Both the position numbers and the translations under genes were made by a program. This document shows, piece after piece, positions 3,778 through 53,434 of a stretch of 64,000 bases of DNA (positions within the stretch are counted from its first letter, which is position 1; each line of letters opens with the position of its first letter). A model generated the notes under the pieces. It searched no databases. It was not told the DNA's origin and saw only the letters and a program-made list of their open reading frames with translations. Source of the stretch: a bacterium. GTDB lineage: Bacteria > Desulfobacterota > Deferrisomatia > Deferrisomatales > BM512. The stretch spans positions 71,817 to 135,816 of the forward strand of contig SCTA01000005.1 in NCBI GenBank assembly GCA_004322275.1. The letters are read 5' to 3'.

Positions 3778-3796
3778 TTTTTAATTTCCGGCAGAG

Positions 3797-3832
3797 AAAA
3801 GGGCCTCCCGAAACCGGAGGCCCTTTTGCTGT
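3797..3832 (+). terminator. Rho-independent terminator after the acyl-CoA dehydrogenase gene
   Basis: An 8-bp GC stem, GGGCCTCC/GGAGGCCC (3801-3823), is followed by TTTTGCTGTGTT. Confidence 0.65.
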
Positions 3833-3837
3833 GTTAT

Positions 3838-4248
3838 AGCTGTTAAAACCTTACCTTCGAGTCCAAAAACATTTCATTGACTAGTTTTTGGACGAGCCAT
3901 CTTTTCGTTCCCCTTCGGGGCCCGTACGCGGCGCAACGAGTGAAGGCGTCGGGCCGGCGCGGGGTCTTAGCGAGCCTTGGCGAGCGGGTGCCCCGTACGG
4001 CCCAGCCGGAACGAAGTGGTCGCGCCAAAGGCGCGAGCAACGCGTTTTCGGGCCGATTTCTTGGGCACTTCTTTCTAAAAGAAGCGCCAAGGAGCGCGAG
4101 GCGAAGTCTCGCTAGCTGTAAATTGATGGGCTAAAGCCCATCCTACCCCTGCTCAAAAGGTGGCTTGGGGACGCGGGGCGGATAGCCCCACAAATATCAT
4201 ACCGGTTTACACAGACAGGATTTGCTTGGTGGGCCGAGCCCACCCTAC
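3838..4248. repeat. Modular hairpin-chain mosaic repeat, copy A
   Basis: It shares linkers with the other copies (TACCTTCGAG, CGAGCC.TC.TTTCG, GCTAGCTGTAAA). It contains hairpin TCCAAAAAC/GTTTTTGGA (3862-3892) and two hairpin+CCTAC units (4125-4146, 4228-4248). It lies between convergent gene ends. Confidence 0.8.
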
Positions 4249-4250
4249 CA

Positions 4251-5003
4251 CTAAAGCTCCAGCCTGAGCCCGTCGAACCCCAGGACAACCTCGCCGCCGA
4301 AGGCGCTTTTGGCCTCCCTGACCGGGTCGCCGGTTTCGGTCTCGGGCTGGATGTGGGTGAGGACGAGCTTTTTCACCCTCGCGGCTTTCGCCAACTCTCC
4401 CGCCTGCACCGGCGTCAGGTGGCCGTCGGCGGGGTTGTCCGAAGCGCGCGAAGCCTCGGCGATGAGGATGTCCGCGCCGCTGGCGAAGACGGCGAGTTCG
4501 CCCGAGGGGCCGGTGTCGCCGGTGATAACCGCCGCGCGCCCCCCGAGGGAGACGCGGTAGGAGATCGAGGATTCGATGTGGTCGGCGTGGCCTGTAGCCA
4601 CCGAAAGCCCCCCGACGAGCAACTCCGCCCCCTCCGAAAGCTCCAGCACCTCGCGGCTGTAGCCGCGGGCCTCCACCCACCTGCCGAAAATCGTCGAAAC
4701 CCCGGAGATCAGGGCCAGAGTGTCCGGCCCCCCCGCGAGAAGAAACCTCTTCTGCCTCGGCGGCGGCGCGTAATTGCAGGCGAAAAAGAAAGGCAGAAGC
4801 TCCGAAAGATGGTCAGGGTGCCTGTGGGTCAGAAAAATCGCGTCCAGGTCCCGGTGCGAAACCCCCGCCCGCAAAAGCCCAACCAGCGCCCCCATCCCCA
4901 GATCGATCGCAACCCTCGCCCCGCCCCCCTCCACGAGAACACACGCCCCCCCTCTCGTCAGAGAAGGAGAACAACCACCGGTGCCAATAAGAGTTATTAG
5001 CAT
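4251..5003 (-). CDS. MBL-fold metallo-hydrolase (RNase Z/PhnP-like)
   Basis: 250 aa with the HxHxDH motif (THRHPDHLSEL) and the later His/Asp ligand pattern typical of the beta-lactamase fold. Confidence 0.75.
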   Translation of the reverse strand: MLITLIGTGGCSPSLTRGGACVLVEGGGARVAIDLGMGALVGLLRAGVSHRDLDAIFLTHRHPDHLSELLPFFFACNYAPPPRQKRFLLAGGPDTLALISGVSTIFGRWVEARGYSREVLELSEGAELLVGGLSVATGHADHIESSISYRVSLGGRAAVITGDTGPSGELAVFASGADILIAEASRASDNPADGHLTPVQAGELAKAARVKKLVLTHIQPETETGDPVREAKSAFGGEVVLGFDGLRLEL

Positions 5004-6143: not shown

Positions 6144-6203
6144 CCTCTCTTGCCTAATGTTGTCGGTTTTTCGTTTCACTCAAACCGACCTACTTTTACA
6201 TAC

Positions 6204-6682
6204 TATAAACAAACTACCTTCGAGCCGATAAGCTAATAATCACCCCGCTTATCGGCGAGCCTTCTTTTCGTCTCCCACAGAGCCCGTACGCGGCGCAACG
6301 AGTGGAGGCGTCGGGCCGGCGCGGGGTCTTAGCGTAGCGAAGCGGAGCGGGTGCCCCGTACGGCCCAGCCGGAACGAAGTGGTCGCTCGTAGAGCGAGCG
6401 ACGCGTCCGGGCTGAGTTTTGGGCCACCTTTTGCTCACTCAAAAGGTGGCTTGGGGCGCGGGGCGGACAGCCCCGCTAGCTGTAAATTGATGGGCTGAAG
6501 CCCATCCTACTCCGGCTAGCTGTAAAAGTGCAAAGCACACAAAAGTCACTGGATTCCCGCGCTTCGCGCGAGAATGACGACCGAAGAATGGTGCGTTACG
6601 GCTACGCCTAACGCACCCTACGTAACTACCCCTCAAAGAAATTAATGTTTTGTCGCCTTTCGCTACGCTCAAAGCGACCTAC
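6204..6682. repeat. Modular hairpin-chain mosaic repeat, copy B
   Basis: Same architecture and orientation as copy A. Hairpins: GCCGATAAGC/GCTTATCGGC (6224-6256), GCCACCTTTTG/CAAAAGGTGGC (6423-6450) and GCGGGGC..GCCCCGC. GCTAGCTGTAAA occurs twice (6475, 6515). Three hairpin+CTAC units are present (6489-6510, 6590-6621, about 6651-6682). Confidence 0.8.
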
Positions 6683-6689
6683 ACAACTA

Positions 6690-6866
6690 CTAATCAATAA
6701 ACTTGCTGGCCATCAGCAGCGCAAAATTAACAATCGCCAGCGCCATGCCGGTATACGACAGCATTTTCCGCTTCTCGTAACTGTTTTTCCGAAAAATCAC
6801 CATAACCGCCAGAACGATAAAAACTTCCGCCCCAACGAGAAAAAACAAAGCATTCTTATCTAACAT
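6690..6866 (-). CDS. Hypothetical small membrane protein (two predicted TM helices)
   Basis: The ORF runs 6690..6989; the internal ATG at 6866 gives MLDKNALFFLVGAEVFIVLAVMVIF...GMALAIVNFALLMASKF with two hydrophobic stretches. The patch is low-GC, and no clear RBS or homology was recognised. Confidence 0.3.
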   Translation of the reverse strand: MLDKNALFFLVGAEVFIVLAVMVIFRKNSYEKRKMLSYTGMALAIVNFALLMASKFID

Positions 6867-6948
6867 CTTTATGATCCGCAAAGCTGGTGTTGCCTGTGTA
6901 AATAAGCCGGGCTGCCGTAATTTTATACACCTATCCGCAACGTAAAAA

Positions 6949-7059
6949 AATACCTTCGAGCGAATGAGCCGGGAAATCCCCGCTCGCATGCGAGTTTTCT
7001 TTTCGTTCCCATGGAGGCCCCGCGAGGTTTTTTAATTTGGCGGGCCGCGCCCTCCCTAC
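6949..7059. repeat. Truncated copy of the hairpin-chain repeat
   Basis: It starts with the conserved TACCTTCGAG, continues with ..TTTTCTTTTCGTTCCC, and ends with a GC hairpin plus CCCTAC (7054-7059). Confidence 0.55.
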
Positions 7060-7167
7060 GAATGGTTGACCACGCCCGCCTCTTCTTATAGGCTTACCAC
7101 TTGGTAAATTAAACGTGACGAGCGCCCGAGGGAATCCGGGACGCGCGATGGTTTATCTGGAGAAATC

Positions 7168-10866: not shown

Positions 10867-13062
10867 TCAGACCCTCTGGGCCAGAACTTCGCGTGGTTTC
10901 GCGCCTCGGTTGGGGCCGACTACCCCTTCGCGCTCCATCATGTCTATGAGGTTGGCGGCGCGGTTGTAGCCGATCTTGAACTTTCGCTGCACCATCGAGG
11001 TGGAGGCCTGCCCCGCCTCGGTGACGAAGCGCACCGCCTCATCATAAAGGGAATCGAACTCTCCCTCGCCGTCATCGTAATACCCGGATTCGTCCGCCGC
11101 AAGAATCTGGTCGTTGTAATCGGGAGTCCCCTGCTGGCGGAGGAAGGCGGTAAGCCGCGTTATCTCCTGCTCGCTGACGTAGGAGCCGTGGACGCGGTTT
11201 ATCTTGGCGGTGCCGGGGGGCAAAAAGAGCATGTCGCCGCCGCCGAGGAGCGATTCGGCCCCCATCGAGTCGAGAATCGTCCTTGAATCTACCCTCGAAG
11301 CCACCTGAAAGGCGATGCGGGCGGGGAAGTTGGCCTTTATCATGCCGGTGAGGACGTCCACGGAGGGGCGCTGGGTGGCGACAATAAGGTGTATGCCCGC
11401 CGCTCGCGCCATCTGCGCAAGCCTCGCTATCGATTCCTCGACGTCCTTGGCTGCGACCATGAGGAGGTCGGCAAGCTCGTCTATTATGACTACTATGTAG
11501 GGAAGGTGTTCGGCGCACTTCTCGTCGGGGGAGGCGTCGCCGGTCTTGAGCAGCTTTTCCACCTTCTTGTTGTGCGAGGTGATGTTCCGCACCCCACCCT
11601 CGGCCATCAGCCGGTACCTTCTCTCCATCTCCACCACCGCCCACTTGAGCGCCACGGCGGCCTTCTTCGCCTCGGTGACGACGGGGAGGAGGAGGTGGGG
11701 GATGTCGTCGTAGACGGAGAGCTCCAGCATCTTCGGATCGACGATTATGAAGCGCACGTCCTTGGGTGTGGCGCGCGCAAGGAGGCTGGCCAGCATCGAG
11801 TGGACGCCGACGGATTTGCCGGAGCCGGTCGCGCCCGCGACGAGGAGGTGCGGCATCCGGGCGAGGTCGGCCACCACGGGGTTTCCCGCGATATCTTTGC
11901 CCATCGCTATGGTAAGGAGAGATTCGGACCCCCTGAAAAGCTGGGAGTTGAGTATCTCGCTGATAAGAACAATGTCGCGCTCGGCGTTGGGTATCTCCAC
12001 GCCGACGGTGTCCTTGCCGGGAATGGGGGCGACTATGCGTATGGACTGGGCGCGAAGGGCCATCGCGAGATCGTCGGAGAGGTTAACTATCTTGTTTATC
12101 TTCACTCCCGCGGCGGGCTTTATCTCGTACATGGTGACGACGGGGCCGGGGTGGACAGTCTCGACCATGCACTCGACCCCGAAATCCTGCAGCTTTTTCA
12201 CCAGCAGCTTGGAGGCCATGAGCAGGGTCTCCTGATCGGGCCCCTTGCCCACTCCCTGCCGCGCCTCGAAGATGTCGAGGGGGGGCAGCTTGTAGCCGTC
12301 CACCTCCCGCACGAAGTCGAAGGTCTCCTGAACCTTCTGGTGGTGGACGGGCTCTTTTTCGGAGACGATCTTCGGGGGCTTCTTGACAGCCGCCGCCCGT
12401 ATCTCGGCCCTGTCCTCCTTTAACTCCCTTTCCCTCGCCTTCTCCTCTTTTCTCGTCGCCCTCCACTCCCTTAAACGGGCCAGAAGCTCGACCGTCTTGT
12501 CCCTTAGCCTTCCGCCGAAGGCGAAAAGGGAGAAATTGACGGTGAAGATGAGGGAGCAGACGAGGCCTGTGACAACGACAAGGTACGCGCCGGGGCGGTT
12601 CAGGATAAAGATCAGCCCCCGCATCAGAAGCTCGCCTAACGCGCCCCCCGCCGGGAAAGCGTCGCGGTCGAAGTGTATCTCGCCGAAAAAGAGGCTTGAG
12701 AAGGTGGCGAAAAGAAGGGTTATAAGGACGTACCCCCCGGCGACCCAGCCTGGGTAGCGTATCGGGCGGAGGATTATGTAGCGCACCGCGAAGACCAGGA
12801 GCGCTATGGGTATCAGAAAGGAGGCCTGCCCCAGAATCTGGATAAGGAGGTCCGCGACGTAGGAGCCGAAGAGCCCCATGGCATTCTGCGGTACCGGCCC
12901 CGCGGTCCCGGCGTTGTTGAAGGAGGGGTCGGCGGAGTTGTAGGTGATGATGGCGGAGGCGAGAAAGACTGCGGCAAGCAGGAGGGTTATCCCCGCGAGC
13001 TCGGCCCTGACCCTCTCGCCAAGCCTGCTGACGCTCTTTTCTTCTCCCTTTGTTTCCGACAT
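10867..13062 (-). CDS. ftsK: DNA translocase FtsK
   Basis: 731 aa. It has N-terminal TM helices, Walker A GATGSGKSVGV, the motor-domain segment HLIVATQRPSVDV and a C-terminal gamma (winged-helix) segment SMVQRKFKIGYNRAANLID. Confidence 0.95.
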   Translation of the reverse strand: MSETKGEEKSVSRLGERVRAELAGITLLLAAVFLASAIITYNSADPSFNNAGTAGPVPQNAMGLFGSYVADLLIQILGQASFLIPIALLVFAVRYIILRPIRYPGWVAGGYVLITLLFATFSSLFFGEIHFDRDAFPAGGALGELLMRGLIFILNRPGAYLVVVTGLVCSLIFTVNFSLFAFGGRLRDKTVELLARLREWRATRKEEKARERELKEDRAEIRAAAVKKPPKIVSEKEPVHHQKVQETFDFVREVDGYKLPPLDIFEARQGVGKGPDQETLLMASKLLVKKLQDFGVECMVETVHPGPVVTMYEIKPAAGVKINKIVNLSDDLAMALRAQSIRIVAPIPGKDTVGVEIPNAERDIVLISEILNSQLFRGSESLLTIAMGKDIAGNPVVADLARMPHLLVAGATGSGKSVGVHSMLASLLARATPKDVRFIIVDPKMLELSVYDDIPHLLLPVVTEAKKAAVALKWAVVEMERRYRLMAEGGVRNITSHNKKVEKLLKTGDASPDEKCAEHLPYIVVIIDELADLLMVAAKDVEESIARLAQMARAAGIHLIVATQRPSVDVLTGMIKANFPARIAFQVASRVDSRTILDSMGAESLLGGGDMLFLPPGTAKINRVHGSYVSEQEITRLTAFLRQQGTPDYNDQILAADESGYYDDGEGEFDSLYDEAVRFVTEAGQASTSMVQRKFKIGYNRAANLIDMMEREGVVGPNRGAKPREVLAQRV

Positions 13063-13078
13063 CCATTATCCTTCCGTT

Positions 13079-13183
13079 GGCGAAAGATCTTCCCGTGATA
13101 CGTCGTCGCGTGCTCGCTTGGGGCTCGCCGTAGCGCTGCTACTGCCTCGCCCCGCGCTGCGCGGCTCCTCGTCTGACGGGAAG
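13079..13183. repeat. GC-rich hairpin repeat (GGCTCGCCGTAGCG.TGCTACTGCCTCGCCC family)
   Basis: It is closed by TTCCCGT/ACGGGAA. Its core GGGGCTCGCCGTAGCGCTGCTACTGCCTCGCCCC is near-identical to 51262-51295. It also carries CGTCGCGTGCTCGC, the reverse complement of part of the 17330/30900 repeat core. Confidence 0.7.
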
Positions 13184-15654: not shown

Positions 15655-16333
15655 GAAGGGCGGGCTCGGCCCGCCGTTTTACAGCTTGCGGGGCTATCCG
15701 CCCCGCGCCCGGACCCCATCTTCTTTTAGCGCCAAAAGAAGATGGGGGAGAAGAAAGGCGCGCCCCCTTTGCGCCAAGGCGCTCATTCGTCGCTCGGCGA
15801 GCGCGCAAATCGCCACGGGCTCATGGCGCGCTCGGAACACCCTCGCTCCCTGGCGCCGGAGGGCGTTGGGTACGAAAAGAAGGCTCGCCGATAAGAGGCG
15901 GGCTTTTTCTCTTATCGGCTCGAAGGTAATTTGTTTACAACTATTCAAAGAATACGTGTAGACAATCTACCTTCGAGTCCAAAAACATTTCATTATCCCG
16001 TTTTTGGCCGAGCCTTCACTTCGTCCTCCCCGTGGCCCGTAGGTGACGCAGGGAGCTTAAGGCGGAAAGGGCGGCGGGGGGGTCTTAGTGAGCGCAGCGA
16101 ACGAGTGCCCCCTCACGCCCCCGCCGCAGCGACCGGTCGCTCGAAGAGCGAGCGGAACCTTCCGGGCCGAGTTTTGCCCCACTTTTTCGACAAAAAGTGG
16201 GGCGCGGGTGCGGGGCGCGCCAAGCCCCGCTAGCCGTAAACGTGCGGAGCACACAAATCCGGTGCGTTACGCCGCTTCGCGGCTAACAGCACCCTACACA
16301 ACTAGTAGACCGATGGGCTAAAGCCCATCCTAC
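15655..16333. repeat. Modular hairpin-chain mosaic repeat, copy C (head-to-head inverted doublet)
   Basis: The left arm (15655-15940) has the reverse-complement architecture of the right arm (15960-16333). Hairpins: CCCCATCTTCTTTT/AAAAGAAGATGGGG (15714-15747), CCGATAAGAG/CTCTTATCGG (15888-15918), CCAAAAAC/GTTTTTGG (15979-16007) and CCCCACTTTTT/AAAAAGTGGGG (16177-16202). Hairpin+CTAC units lie at 16261-16297 and 16312-16333. Confidence 0.8.
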
Positions 16334-16867: not shown

Positions 16868-17302
16868 TCACTCTCCCTTTACGATGACGATTTCGTCGCC
16901 GTTTTTGACCTCGCCCTCGCTGAGCACCTTCGCGAAGATCCCTTCCTTGGGCATGACGCAGTCGCCCGCCTGATGGTAGATCGCGCAGCGCGTGTGGCAC
17001 TCCTTGCCGTGCTGGGTTATCTCCATGAGCACCGGGCCGACCTTGATCTTCGAGCCGAGCGGCAGGGCGAGGAGATCGAGCCCCCGCGTGGTGAGGTTTT
17101 CGGCGAAATCGCCCGCCTTCACGTCAAGCCCCATCGCGCGCATCTTGTCTATCGACTCCTCGGCGAGGAGGCTGACCATCCTGTGCCAGTCGCCGGAGTG
17201 GGCGTCGCCCGCAAGGCCGGTAAAGGTTATGAGTACCGCCGGAATCGGGGTTTTTCTCATCCCCTTTTTATCGCTTATGTTAATGGAAACCAGTGTCGCC
17301 AT
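16868..17302 (-). CDS. MOSC domain-containing protein
   Basis: 144 aa with an AAGGAG RBS. It has the small MOSC beta-barrel pattern (..GDAHSG....ENLTT.GLDL..L..G....G..L.EIT....C..C) and forms an operon with mog. Confidence 0.75.
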   Translation of the reverse strand: MATLVSINISDKKGMRKTPIPAVLITFTGLAGDAHSGDWHRMVSLLAEESIDKMRAMGLDVKAGDFAENLTTRGLDLLALPLGSKIKVGPVLMEITQHGKECHTRCAIYHQAGDCVMPKEGIFAKVLSEGEVKNGDEIVIVKGE

Positions 17303-17329: not shown

Positions 17330-17453
17330 TGAAAAACGTAACGAGAAACCCGGTTTCAAGGAGACGCGCAGCGAGAAGCGAGACATAACAAGTAGTTAGG
17401 CGAGTTTCGAGCGAGCACGCGACGCAGAAAACGGGTTTCGCAGTAGTTTTTCA
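17330..17453. repeat. Long-hairpin repeat element (GGAGACGCG.AGCGAGA.GCGAGACATAAC core), copy X
   Basis: It is closed by TGAAAAAC/GTTTTTCA (17330-17337 / 17446-17453) and GAAACCCG/CGGGTTTC (17345-17352 / 17432-17439). By manual alignment its 68-nt core is about 85% identical to the core inside 30900-31035. Confidence 0.8.
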
Positions 17454-30439: not shown

Positions 30440-30545
30440 CCGGGGGTCGTTTCTCGGGCGCGGGTCTTGGCGTATAGACGACGATACTGCCTTCGACCGC
30501 GCGCCCTGCGGACTCCTTGCCCTTCGCCAAAACAGTTTGCCGGAA
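30440..30545. repeat. About 90-bp GC-rich repeat (GGCGAAGGGCAAGGAGTCCGCAGGGCGCGC... family), minus orientation
   Basis: Its reverse complement is near-identical to 40810-40895, with a few substitutions and a 3-4 nt indel by manual alignment. Confidence 0.8.
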
Positions 30546-30899: not shown

Positions 30900-31035
30900 T
30901 AAATCGCTTTAAAAACCGTCGCGGAAGCCACGGAGACGCGGAGCGAGACGCGAGACATAACTTATTGTTAGGCGAGCGTGGAGCGAGCACGCGACGAAGC
31001 ATACGAGGCTTTAAGCAGGTTTTTAAAGCGATTTA
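30900..31035. repeat. Long-hairpin repeat element, copy Y, inserted between tRNA-Arg and tRNA-His
   Basis: A perfect 18-bp terminal inverted repeat, TAAATCGCTTTAAAAACC (30900-30917) / GGTTTTTAAAGCGATTTA (31018-31035), encloses the same core as 17330-17453. Confidence 0.85.
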
Positions 31036-31121: not shown

Positions 31122-31158
31122 AAGGGCTTACGGGTAAAACCGTAAGCCCTTTGTTTTT
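31122..31158 (+). terminator. Rho-independent terminator after the tRNA cluster
   Basis: A 12-bp stem, AAGGGCTTACGG/CCGTAAGCCCTT, is followed by TGTTTTT. Confidence 0.75.
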
Positions 31159-31214: not shown

Positions 31215-31700
31215 AGTTGCGGGGCTATTCGACCCTGCGCCCCAACACCGCTTCTTTTGACCGCCCAAAGGTAGATTTTCTACACATATCTCGAATAGCT
31301 GTAAACAAACTACTTTCGAGGCCAAAAACATTTCATTATCCCGTTTTTGGACGAGCCATCCTTTCGTCTCCCCCTCGTGGCCCGTAGGTGACGCAGGGAG
31401 CGGAGGCGGAAAGGGCGGCGGGGGGGGTCTTAGTGAGCGCAGCGAACGGGTGCCCCCTCACGCCCCCGCCGCAGCGACCGGTCGCTCGAAGAGCGAGCGG
31501 CTCCTCCCGGGCCGATTTCTTGGGTACTTCTTTATAAAAGAAGTACCAAGGGCGCGGGGCAAAGCCCCGCTAGCTGTAAAACCTGCGAAACACACAAAAG
31601 TCACTGGTTTCCCGCATTCGCGGGAATGACGAAGGAGAAGTGGTGCGTTACGCCGCTTCGCGGCTAACACACCCTACATATCTAAAACCCATCCTACACA
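31215..31700. repeat. Modular hairpin-chain mosaic repeat, copy D
   Basis: The forward unit starts at AGCTGTAAACAAACTACTTTCGAG (31297). Hairpins: CCAAAAAC/GTTTTTGG (31322-31350), GGTACTTCTTT/AAAGAAGTACC (31523-31547) and GCGGGGCAAAGCCCCGC. GCTAGCTGTAAA lies at 31569, and a hairpin+CTAC unit lies at 31642-31677. A short reversed fragment lies at about 31225-31262. Confidence 0.8.
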
Positions 31701-31707
31701 CCTGTAT

Positions 31708-32502
31708 CTATTTGGCCAGAGTTTTCAGCCTGGCTCTCGTTTCCTCGGCTTTCGCGGGTTCGCCGACCTTTTCGTACAGCTCCACGAGCAGGACGAGCGC
31801 TTCGGCGTAGTTGGGGTCTTCTTCCATCGCCTTCCCAATCGCCTCTATCGCCTTGTGGGGCATCCCCCTTTTCTGGAATAGCTGCGCCGATCTCAGGTAC
31901 CTGACCGCCTTGCCCGCAGCTGCAACGTGTATCTCGGGTTCCTTCGGCTTCGCCCCGAGGCCGAGCATGCCGTCCACCTTTTCACGAAGTTCGTCGCGCA
32001 TCGAGGTGGGGTAGCCGGAGAGAGCGTAGACGATGGTGGAGGAGGAATCGAGGAGAAGGGTGGAGGGGAGGGCGCTGACGCCGTACTCGTTGTAAAGGGT
32101 GAGAGACTTGTCCATAAGCACCGGGTATTTGGCCCCGGCGAGGGAGACGGCGGCCCTGTAAAGGCCCATTTCCCCAGGCACGAACTCCTGATGCTCGGCG
32201 TTTATCGCGATTACCTGTAACCCCGCCCCGCTGCGCTTTTCGTAGATTTTCTGATAGTCGGCGAGCGCCTCTACGCTTCGCGGCGACCAGGAGGCCCAGA
32301 AGATAACGAGGGTTGCCTTCTCACCAAGGTTTTTGGAGAGGGAAAAGTCCTTGCCGTCGATGGTTTCGAGGGTGAAGTCCTCTATCTTCGAGCCTTCCTG
32401 CACTCTCCTAAAGGCGCTGGCGTGGGCCGCCGACACGAGGATGCACGCCAGAAGAAGCAGCGCGCCTATTCCGGCTTTGCCCGTTATGGTTTTTATCGTC
32501 AT
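31708..32502 (-). CDS. TlpA/redoxin-fold lipoprotein-like protein with C-terminal TPR, lacking the CxxC active site
   Basis: 264 aa with a signal peptide. The thioredoxin-fold block LVIFWASWSPRSVEAL aligns to the canonical FWA.WC..C and has Ser at both Cys positions. The C-terminus has a TPR-like segment (AEALVLLVELYEKVGEPAKAEE). Confidence 0.7.
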   Translation of the reverse strand: MTIKTITGKAGIGALLLLACILVSAAHASAFRRVQEGSKIEDFTLETIDGKDFSLSKNLGEKATLVIFWASWSPRSVEALADYQKIYEKRSGAGLQVIAINAEHQEFVPGEMGLYRAAVSLAGAKYPVLMDKSLTLYNEYGVSALPSTLLLDSSSTIVYALSGYPTSMRDELREKVDGMLGLGAKPKEPEIHVAAAGKAVRYLRSAQLFQKRGMPHKAIEAIGKAMEEDPNYAEALVLLVELYEKVGEPAKAEETRARLKTLAK

Positions 32503-40763: not shown

Positions 40764-40799
40764 AAAGCGTCGCGAGAAGCCCGGACTACTCCAGCACGC

Positions 40800-40905
40800 T
40801 ATTTCGGCGAAGGGCAAGGAGTCCGCAGGGCGCGCAGTCGAAGGCAGTATCGTTTATACGCCGAGACTCGCGCCCGAGAAACGACACAGCCATTCGCCGA
40901 AATCG
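40800..40905. repeat. About 90-bp GC-rich repeat, plus orientation, in the glgB-glgP spacer
   Basis: It is closed by an 11-bp inverted repeat, ATTTCGGCGAA/TTCGCCGAAAT. Its core is near-identical to the reverse complement of 30450-30535. It ends about 10 nt before the glgP start codon. Confidence 0.8.
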
Positions 40906-43611: not shown

Positions 43612-43659
43612 GGATGGACTCGGATTTGAAGGGCATTTCAAATCCTCGGGGCTTCGCCC
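43612..43659. repeat. 48-bp direct repeat, copy 1
   Basis: GGATGGACTCGGATTTGAAGGGCATTTCAAATCCTCGGGGCTTCGCCC recurs at 43918-43965 with 3 mismatches. It contains the hairpin GGATTTGAA/TTCAAATCC. Confidence 0.85.
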
Positions 43660-43662
43660 CAG

Positions 43663-43712
43663 CCCTTTGGGCTGTCCAATTCGACATTCGGCGAATTGGA
43701 CAGCCCAAAGGG
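43663..43712. repeat. Perfect 21-bp-stem hairpin
   Basis: CCCTTTGGGCTGTCCAATTCG - ACATTCGG - CGAATTGGACAGCCCAAAGGG. Confidence 0.9.
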
Positions 43713-43776: not shown

Positions 43777-43853
43777 TGGCGCGCCCGGAGGGATTTGAAC
43801 CCCCGGCCTGCGGATTCGAAGTCCGACGCTCTATCCGGCTGAGCTACGGGCGC
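43777..43853 (-). tRNA. tRNA-Arg (anticodon TCG)
   Basis: The reverse complement folds with acceptor GCGCCCG/CGGGCGC, D arm GCTC..GAGC, anticodon loop CTTCGAA and T arm GGGGG-TTCAAAT-CCCTC, with CCA encoded. There is one mismatch at the top of the anticodon stem. Confidence 0.8.
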
Positions 43854-43917: not shown

Positions 43918-43965
43918 GGATGGACTCGGATTTGAAGGGTGTTTCAAGTCCTCGGGGCTTCGCCC
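43918..43965. repeat. 48-bp direct repeat, copy 2
   Basis: See copy 1. This copy lies on the other side of tRNA-Arg(TCG). Confidence 0.85.
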
Positions 43966-43998
43966 ACGGTCTTTCAACCCGGCTTTTTAGCAGGTTCT

Positions 43999-51224: not shown

Positions 51225-51405
51225 CGGGTTTCCGCCCCCGGCTTCGTCATGTCCTCTCTCAAGGGCTCGCCGTAGCGATGCTACTGCCTCGCCCTCTCGT
51301 TGCGGGATTCCTCGCCGGGAACGAAAAACCGCATCGGCAAAGGCCTCACGCATTAGCTTTGGCGGAGGCACCCGCTACGGACTCCTCGCCCGGCGGCAAA
51401 ATCCT
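51225..51405. repeat. GC-rich hairpin repeat (GGCTCGCCGTAGCG.TGCTACTGCCTCGCCC family plus CTCCTCGCCCGGCGGCAAAATCC tail)
   Basis: The core at 51262-51295 matches 13121-13154. The tail CTCCTCGCCCGGCGGCAAAATCC (51383-51405) is identical to 53348-53370. Confidence 0.75.
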
Positions 51406-51407
51406 TA

Positions 51408-53254: not shown

Positions 53255-53371
53255 CGGCGGCTTCGTCTTTTGCCGCAGGGCTTCGTCGCTACTCGGGAGC
53301 GCTCCTCGCCGTATGAACGATACTGTCTTCGTCGCGCTCCCTGCGGGCTCCTCGCCCGGCGGCAAAATCCT
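53255..53371. repeat. GC-rich hairpin repeat, related to 51225-51405
   Basis: The outer stem is CCGCAGGG/CCCTGCGG, and it shares the tail GGCTCCTCGCCCGGCGGCAAAATCC. Confidence 0.7.
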
Positions 53372-53434
53372 TTACCGTAAGGAAAAACGCAGGGGCGAGT
53401 TTTCGACGTTTTTTGACAGCCTTTCCGGAATTAT

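Follow-up and report, generated by a model that had tools for sequence, protein, structure and literature searches.

A repeated unit in five intergenic spacers

We have analyzed a stretch of 64,000 nucleotides (nt) of bacterial DNA, referred to below as the window (GCA_004322275.1, contig SCTA01000005.1, 71,817-135,816; position 1 is its first letter), in which a structured unit of about 285 nt recurs in the spacers between genes. The window has a G+C content of 60% and its genes include multihaem cytochromes, a type II secretion cluster and purM. The PurM protein is 64-68% identical to those of Deferrisoma and Desulfuromonas, and 97% and 82% identical to two metagenomic proteins, values that together with the gene content would place the host in an uncultured lineage near Deferrisoma/Desulfuromonas. 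Besides purM, the genes that neighbor the repeats code for an acyl-CoA dehydrogenase, an MBL-fold hydrolase, an HSDR_N-domain protein, a DUF2007 protein, a MoaB-like protein and a redoxin-TPR protein.

A previous sequence-only reading had proposed that four long spacers and one truncated copy share a single architecture, a chain of hairpins separated by conserved linkers. We read the four spacers and the short copy, and all the hairpin arms and junction words quoted there were found in place. We defined the unit by BLAST of two copies against the window and by multiple alignment, and these methods, together with a covariance model, recovered the common architecture as units A, B, C, D and E. 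In the window, to which all the copy counts given here refer, there are four full copies on the plus strand (A, B, C2 and D), one copy on the minus strand with a divergent core (C1), one short copy (E) and three fragments, distributed over five spacers (Table 1). The pairwise identity of the full copies by BLAST is 72-84% (D/C2 84%, B/A 79%, D/A 77%, B/D 72%), and C1 matched the other units only in the left module (88% over 66 nt) and in the right one (94% over 33 nt). When the window was scanned in full, with filters switched off, by a covariance model built on the left module, exactly six copies (A, B, C1, C2, D and E) were returned with E-values from 7.5e-17 to 6e-13, the next best match having an E-value of 0.17. 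A weak match of the same model at 31259-31280 falls inside the deleted minus-strand unit at 31215-31290. All the copies of the window span no more than 28 kb, and the sequences that flank the A, B, C and D copies are unrelated to one another. The units showed no conserved coding potential, the indels of the alignment not being multiples of three; small protein genes within the unit were considered and rejected, since these indels break the frames.

The spacer 15655-16333 had been described as a head-to-head inverted doublet, and this is what we found (C1/C2, with the axis at ~15946-15956). However, that span cannot be taken as one element, as it begins at the stop codon of the upstream gene, takes in the terminator hairpin of this gene, and also includes three of the smaller modules described below (X', REP-d and REP-a). 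Neither is it the only doublet of the window. The D locus is a second one, formed by unit D and the minus-strand copy 31215-31290, which has most of its interior deleted.

Anatomy of the unit

The left end of the unit reads (GAA)TAGCTGTAAACAAACTACCTTCGAG and is followed by hairpin 1, which is AT-rich, has 9-10 bp and a 13-nt loop and is closed by CGAG/CGAG (these can pair as C-G, G.A, A.G and G-C). On its 3' side the linker CGAGCCWTCYTTTCG leads into a core of ~140 nt. Hairpin 2, with one T-rich and one A-rich arm, is located 3' of the core, and after it come the right GC hairpin, GGGCGCGGGGC-loop-GCCCCGC (GCGGGGC/GCCCCGC), and the word TAGCTGTAAA. This 10-nt word is present at both ends of the unit as a direct repeat. 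The left end occurs in two variants, GAATAGYTGTAAACAAAYTAC and RATAYGTGTAGAMAATCTAC, and in both head-to-head doublets one of them faces the other. TGTAAA precedes the left linker and also ends the unit, and at A and B it is REP-a that comes after it. When the junction word GCTAGCTGTAAA was searched allowing up to 2 mismatches, eight matches were found in the window, seven of them at unit ends, while shuffled sequences gave a mean of 2.2 and none out of 100 reached eight. Terminal inverted repeats are absent from single units, and inverted ends appear only in the head-to-head doublets, by construction. In the same way, no copy-specific direct repeat (target-site duplication) is present in the flanks of A, B, C and D.

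Base-pairing is conserved by compensated changes

The base-pairing of the unit is conserved through compensated changes. For hairpin 1, 93.9% of the cells of the six-copy alignment are paired, against 29-39% when the partner is slid, and 7 out of 11 pairs have changed on both sides. None of 500 shuffles reached the observed percentage of pairing, the number of cells changed on both sides or the covariation score, and a single one reached the number of pairs so changed. Folding A, B, C2 and D together gave a consensus of 72 pairs, 16 of which have changed on both sides with pairing kept. Over the whole unit 95.1% of the cells are paired, compared with 40-50% when the partners were slid by 1-3 columns, and the slid controls had only 0-5 compensated pairs. 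In the corresponding shuffles, four of the five measures were never reached (0/500) and the remaining one, further pair types, was reached in 16/500.

The stems had been described before as perfectly complementary and replaced wholesale from copy to copy. Complementary they are, but they have not been replaced wholesale: they are homologous, with 3-4 compensated pairs and loops that are partly alike. As an example, the stems TCCAAAAAC and GCCGATAAGC can be aligned in register, with differences at three compensated pairs plus one inserted pair. Besides, the structure is not limited to hairpins 1 and 2, to which it had been confined, because the core covaries as well. Since no more than two to three independent lineages can be told apart among the cores (A~B, C2~D and C1), the compensated pairs reflect few events, and it is on these that the covariation rests.

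Both strands fold about equally. Single-copy folds are better than those of shuffled sequences on the plus strand (-137.8 kcal/mol, z -3.2) and on the minus strand (-134.0 kcal/mol, z -3.6). The energy of the consensus fold is -86.1 kcal/mol on the plus strand versus -78.7 kcal/mol on the minus strand, where the 16 compensated pairs are found too, and the counts of G-U versus A-C in the consensus folds of both strands revealed no asymmetry. The pairing data therefore do not single out RNA, single-stranded DNA or a duplex palindrome, and the equal folding of both strands is as expected for a DNA palindrome and not for an RNA made from one strand.

Distribution and a copy in a second species

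At gathering thresholds, Rfam identified only four tRNAs in the window, and the units had no match even at E<=10, in agreement with the previous reading, which had not recognised the composite as a named family. The Rfam overlaps with the mosaics are at chance level, ncS16 in module X (6547-6616, E-value 1.6) and STnc320 on the terminator at 3789-3846, which clips the first bases of unit A (E-value 5.9). A pattern of the left module had a single match in ~185,000 species genomes, inside a histidine-kinase coding region and attributable to chance, and its relaxed version had one AT-rich chance match in metagenomes. The pattern of the right module had no matches in the JGI (Joint Genome Institute) metagenomes, and neither pattern had any in viral contigs. 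Searches with blastn in distant mode found nothing for unit D (31288-31590) among plasmids or for the unit B mosaic (6195-6690) among phages. Contigs of the same organism (run SRR8426595) end inside unit A and inside REP-d, which is weakly suggestive of further copies, although the assembly also breaks inside genes.

A copy was nevertheless found in a related species, here species R (JGI 3300045051, 3300044712 and 3300042876), which has the glycogen-gene cluster and the redoxin-TPR gene in common with the window (86.6% identity at the nucleotide level over 9.3 kb). On the 3' side of the redoxin-TPR gene, species R has a canonical terminator, a GTAGG hairpin similar to REP-c, the right part of the unit and then the end of the contig. 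This copy (L007 10990-11136) is located at the same gene end as D. However, it is 94.9% identical over 138 nt to C2 and only 80.3% to D, and the modules found between the gene and the unit differ from those at the D locus of the window. The pattern of the right module had missed it because of a different right end, GCTAGCTATAA. All six right modules, that of species R included, have an intact hairpin 2.

From this comparison, the unit family is older than the split between the window organism and species R, its subfamilies are better conserved than the surrounding coding DNA, and the spacer at this gene end was rebuilt independently in the two species. Local duplication is ruled out by the copy of species R. 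Hence, of the earlier proposal that the repeats reflect selection on structure and not simple duplication, the second half stands, while selection at the RNA level is not borne out, given that the two strands fold about equally. The comparison with species R suggests turnover or mobility, and the pattern fits either mobility or recombination among copies or a strong constraint. No close homologue of the acyl-CoA dehydrogenase was found from species R, and no empty site was obtained.

Another relative has a PurM 97% identical to that of the window (L002 780-1560 versus window 6690-7167). The spacer upstream of its purM has retained the promoter-like TTGACC...CTTCTTATAGGCTTACC but contains nothing recognisable as copy E, and the gene beyond the small open reading frame (ORF) is also different.

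The mosaics and their gene context

The spacers that carry the units also contain eleven small hairpins ending in CCTAC, two of them degenerate or remnant, which we call REP-like after REP (repetitive extragenic palindromic) sequences. They belong to five stem types and are all on the plus strand. Shuffled sequences gave about one such hairpin per strand, and the matches on the minus strand fall only in coding sequence. Read on the minus strand the CCTAC hairpins are GTAGG plus a hairpin, the format of GTAG-tagged REPs, and by analogy they would imply a system of the REP-associated tyrosine transposase (RAYT) type somewhere in the genome. A further component, module X, comes after the right ends of B and D. 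On the minus strand it reads GUCAUUCCCGC...GCGGGAA..UGAC and then UUUUGUGUGUUU, which makes it a plausible intrinsic terminator for the converging minus-strand gene.

A and D begin between a few bases and 60 nt after clear intrinsic terminators (3797-3827 and 31122-31151) of the upstream plus-strand gene or tRNA cluster. C adjoins a GC hairpin, GGGCGGGC-TCG-GCCCGCC, with a short T-run, which the terminator scan did not flag. Scans for promoters and terminators found neither a sigma-70-like promoter nor any consistent terminator inside the units. The possibility of promoters at the head-to-head axis was also considered and rejected, as the hexamers are weak and the scan found none. The ~285-nt unit tends to be placed where convergent genes leave a space between their two terminator-type hairpins, and A, C and D, which start just after the terminator-type hairpin of the upstream gene, may for this reason lie outside the main transcripts.

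As had been noted before, three of the four full copies are located between convergent gene ends. In five cases out of five (A, B, C2, D and the copy of species R), the right end is turned towards the stop codon of an oncoming gene. E is located in a promoter region, B has a minus-strand gene on each side, and three convergent spacers of the window (8867/8905, 43478/43999 and 51218/51408) have no unit. The GC skew, between -0.04 and +0.03, is too weak to assign leading and lagging strands.

Table 1. Units, fragments, REP-like hairpins and X modules in the window, by position
Feature	Position	Strand	Remarks
Full unit A	3836-4122	+	left linker, hairpin 1 (3862-3892), linker CGAGCCATCTTTTCG, structured core, hairpin 2, right GC hairpin, GCTAGCTGTAAA
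REP-like a, GATGGGCTAAAGCCCATCCTAC	4125-4146	+	directly 3' of the junction word of A
Right-module fragment of a second, 5'-truncated B-type unit	4152-4189	+	without the final junction word; 94.7% to B positions 235-271 (BLAST)
REP-like b, GGTGGGCCGAGCCCACCCTAC	4228-4248	+	abuts the stop codon of the minus-strand gene 4251-5003
REP-like c, GTCGGTTTTTCGTTTCACTCAAACCGACCTAC	6162-6193	+	similar unit in species R, L007 ~10936-10970
Full unit B	6203-6486	+	hairpin 1 6224-6256; hairpin 2 6423-6450
REP-like a	6489-6510	+	followed by a second (TCCG)GCTAGCTGTAAA to 6526
Right-end fragment	6511-6526	+	last ~14 nt of the unit, the second (TCCG)GCTAGCTGTAAA copy; after REP-like a, within 6489-6526
Module X	6527-6589	+	on the minus strand a hairpin, then UUUUGUGUG; terminator-like
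REP-like d	6590-6621	+	3' of module X
REP-like e, GTCGCCTTTCGCTACGCTCAAAGCGACCTAC	6652-6682	+	direct sequence reading
Short copy E	6944-7028	+	left linker, degenerate hairpin 1, linker, start of core; upstream of the purM promoter
Degenerate REP-b-like unit	7038-7059	+	3' of short copy E
Unit C1	15678-15945	-	end modules as in the others, core divergent; hairpin 1 15888-15918; hairpin 2 15714-15747
Full unit C2	15957-16240	+	hairpin 1 15979-16007; hairpin 2 16177-16202; head-to-head with C1
Short X'	16241-16260	+	right of unit C2
REP-like d	16261-16297	+	right of X'
REP-like a	16312-16333	+	right end of the C mosaic
Internally deleted unit	31215-31290	-	right GC hairpin fused to a type-2 left end (GTAGAAAATCTACCTTT); head-to-head with D
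Full unit D	31295-31580	+	hairpin 1 31322-31350; hairpin 2 31523-31547
Module X	31581-31641	+	3' of unit D
REP-like d	31642-31677	+	3' of module X at D
REP-a remnant, CCCATCCTAC	31688-31697	+	runs up to the stop codon of the minus-strand gene 31708-32502

Origin of the units

The reading that we favor, with a probability slightly above one half (about 0.55), is that the units form a lineage-restricted family of non-autonomous, non-coding intergenic repeats, each made of a fixed series of stem-loops and embedded in REP-like mosaics. The units would have spread or been reshuffled at the DNA level, and the likely agent would be an enzyme or a recombination process that recognises folded single-stranded hairpins together with the junction word, in the way that RAYT acts with REPs or TnpA with the ends of IS200/IS605. 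Propagation would require the hairpins and so keep them paired, and template switching within the palindromes may also contribute. The units would persist where their insertion is harmless, that is, in the gap between terminators at the 3' ends of genes, and any effect on the host would be secondary, as for example that of a barrier separating convergent transcription units. The presence of truncated, internally deleted and head-to-head copies (4152-4189, 6511-6526, 31215-31290 and E) is as found in decaying families of mobile repeats.

Several observations weigh against such an origin. Single units have neither terminal inverted repeats nor a variable target-site duplication, and the two end hairpins are unlike each other, in contrast to IS200/IS605 ends. 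For an active family, the copies within the genome, 72-84% identical, are old. The window ORFs scanned near the units include no transposase, RAYT or recombinase gene, and no empty site was recovered. Finally, purifying selection for a host function could account for the 95% identity between species.

This last argument belongs to a different explanation, in which the units are cis-acting elements of the host at gene ends, similar to the bacterial interspersed mosaic elements (BIMEs), that end or insulate convergent transcription, protect the 3' ends of mRNAs or bind nucleoid proteins or gyrase, and whose conservation would reflect this function. We consider it possible but decidedly less probable. 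The position of most full copies between convergent gene ends and the constant orientation of the right end towards the oncoming gene speak for it, and so does a conservation of 95% across species, when the genes have 87%. Also in its favor, module X is on the minus strand a hairpin plus UUUUGUGUGUUU downstream of the minus-strand genes at B and D, and the same gene in species R has instead a canonical terminator of its own. However, the terminator-like part of the mosaic is module X and not the 285-nt unit, whose hairpins have no T-runs and in which the scans found no consistent terminators. Actually, the unit is located beyond terminator-type hairpins on both sides and may not be transcribed at all. 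An element with this function is hard to reconcile with its absence from the three other convergent spacers, or with the presence of E in a promoter region and of B between two minus-strand genes.

It is unlikely that each unit encodes a structured non-coding RNA or supplies a mobile system with its RNA or guide component, as do the omega RNA of TnpB/IscB and the bridge RNA of IS110, the specificity being carried by the variable stems or loops. In favor of an RNA, the multi-helix core has been conserved and shows compensated changes from one subfamily to the other, the four full copies are all on one strand, the consensus energy is slightly better on the plus strand, and conservation between species is higher in the unit than in the flanking genes. 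Nevertheless, Rfam had no match at E<=10, with the IS605-orfB and HEARO-type families included, there is neither a promoter consensus nor a terminator at the end of the unit, and the strands show no asymmetry of G-U versus A-C. Besides, no associated protein gene was found nearby, and copies with truncations or internal deletions are tolerated. In C1 it is the ends that are kept and the core that is lost, the reverse of what a functional RNA core predicts.

We also regard as improbable that the unit is the non-autonomous form of an undescribed mobile element without terminal inverted repeats, moving as folded single-stranded DNA or joined site-specifically at GCTAGCTGTAAA. Such an element would explain the same word at both ends, the modules chained by this word, the 5'-truncated neighbors and the bias to one strand, and the conserved multi-helix core could then be an RNA or DNA cofactor of the mobilising enzyme. 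As to a local segmental duplication or chance hairpins in GC-rich spacers, with no family behind them, the confinement of all the window copies to 28 kb and the lack of real matches of the exact patterns in other genomes are not enough to save an explanation already refuted by the copy in a second species, the unrelated flanks, the identities of 72-84% with subfamilies and compensated pairs, and the shuffle and slide controls that exclude chance.

If the units are indeed a family of DNA-level repeats, as we favor, they add another structured repeat family to those specific to one lineage, here that of an uncultured bacterium related to Deferrisoma and Desulfuromonas. Their practical value would be modest: they would explain assembly breaks, mark gene-end spacers that are permissive, and serve as a strain or lineage marker. 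If the full genome had a dedicated hairpin-recognising enzyme or a discrete transcript, then the linkers, the terminal word and the core would be the substrate of a new mobilisation or RNA system.

Other repeats in the window

Besides the GTAGC/GCTAC repeat discussed below, three other repeats were detected. The first is a direct repeat of 95 nt, 78% identical, at 17357-17451 and 30929-31023 (CA.GGAGACGCG.AGCGAGA.GCGAGACATAAC...), with no match in Rfam; one copy is upstream of the minus-strand gene 16868-17302 and the other between tRNA genes. The second, of ~39 nt (GC.C.CCCTGCGGACTCCT.GCCC..CG.CAAAA), is found at gene boundaries (30499-30537, 51368-51406 and 53334-53372). A similar sequence in reverse orientation is present near 40790-40830, and a contig of the same organism (L006) ends in a copy near 40821. 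The third is a direct repeat of 57 nt, 88% identical (43612-43668 and 43918-43974), that flanks the minus-strand tRNA gene at 43780-43853 and may be what is left of a duplication, or may mark both ends of an integrated segment.

Comparison with known families

We have compared the unit with the known classes of intergenic repeats and structured elements. Three candidate identities fit poorly. A MITE (miniature inverted-repeat transposable element) derived from a DDE transposon does not fit, as there are no terminal inverted repeats and no copy-specific target-site duplication, and an intrinsic terminator does not fit either, as there is no consistent GC stem plus T-run inside the units. The attC sites of integrons have R''/R' core sites (RYYYAAC ... 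GTTRRRY) that bound an imperfect palindrome, and by inspection neither CCAAAAAC/GTTTTTGG nor TGTAAAC fits this consensus.

The unit resembles the non-autonomous elements derived from IS200/IS605 in that it lacks terminal inverted repeats and a variable target duplication, has subterminal hairpins and is biased to one strand. Like them, it has a constant short word on the left flank, found again at the right end. The difference is that hairpin 1 and the right GC hairpin are unrelated, whereas one TnpA recognises similar hairpins at both ends. Also, neither tnpA nor tnpB was found among the window ORFs scanned near the units, and there is no match to the IS605-orfB RNA of Rfam.

Closer to the host lineage, the genomes of Geobacter and Pelobacter are rich in palindrome-based intergenic "multicopy nucleotide sequences", often several of them per spacer (PMC2700814, PMC2996986), which have been curated by Aklujkar et al. 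(PMC2700814, PMC2996986, PMC3543383). The likeness lies in a related host (Desulfuromonadota-like) and in palindromic families that share spacers. However, the diagnostic words of the unit are absent from the supplementary alignments of G. metallireducens. A separate repeat of the window with a GTAGC/GCTAC stem, GGGCTCGCCGTAGCG(C/A)TGCTACTGCCTCGCCC, at 13120-13153 and 51263-51294, does resemble the "GRCGTAGCGCTGCTACGCC" family, predicted short RNA elements of Geobacter metallireducens (PMC2700814, Additional file 4).

The mosaics as a whole are similar to REP/BIME arrays, as they are extragenic, located at convergent or unidirectional gene ends, and made of hairpins joined by conserved linkers. 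REP families prefer convergent and unidirectional gene ends, and in them alternative complementary stem residues under a conserved tag are the norm (PMC3733652). Conserved flanks with alternative stems are thus typical of hairpin-dependent repeats and do not point to anything new, since the same pattern has been described for REP families. The small CCTAC hairpins have the format of REPs, an imperfect 20-40 nt palindrome that bears, immediately at one end, an unpaired GTAG/CTAC tag. The unit itself, at 285 nt, is about ten times longer than a REP and has no GTAG tag in the REP position. Hairpin 1 has its CTAC on the opposite side, 7 nt in the 5' direction, and neither hairpin 2 nor the GC hairpin is tagged. 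Moreover, all the intergenic REP-like units of the window share one orientation, while the REPs of a BIME alternate, and a RAYT gene (Y1 transposase) was not among the neighboring window ORFs scanned. As regards abundance, REP/BIME copy numbers are high, ~100 or more per genome, and the 64 kb contain six units and ~11 REP-like hairpins.

The BOX elements of Streptococcus pneumoniae, ERIC and the Correia-type MITEs are non-coding, structured, intergenic and lineage-restricted sequences of 100-300 nt, and BOX is modular (boxA-boxB-boxC) with truncated variants. These families end in terminal inverted repeats, with a TA duplication in the case of Correia, whereas the unit has the direct word TAGCTGTAAA at both ends and no visible target duplication. 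They are alike in size class, structure, modularity, truncated variants, intergenic location and restriction to a lineage. The repeats described here are thus most likely a new family within a known class, that of the REP/BIME mosaics, BOX, ERIC and Correia, and not a new kind of RNA or system.

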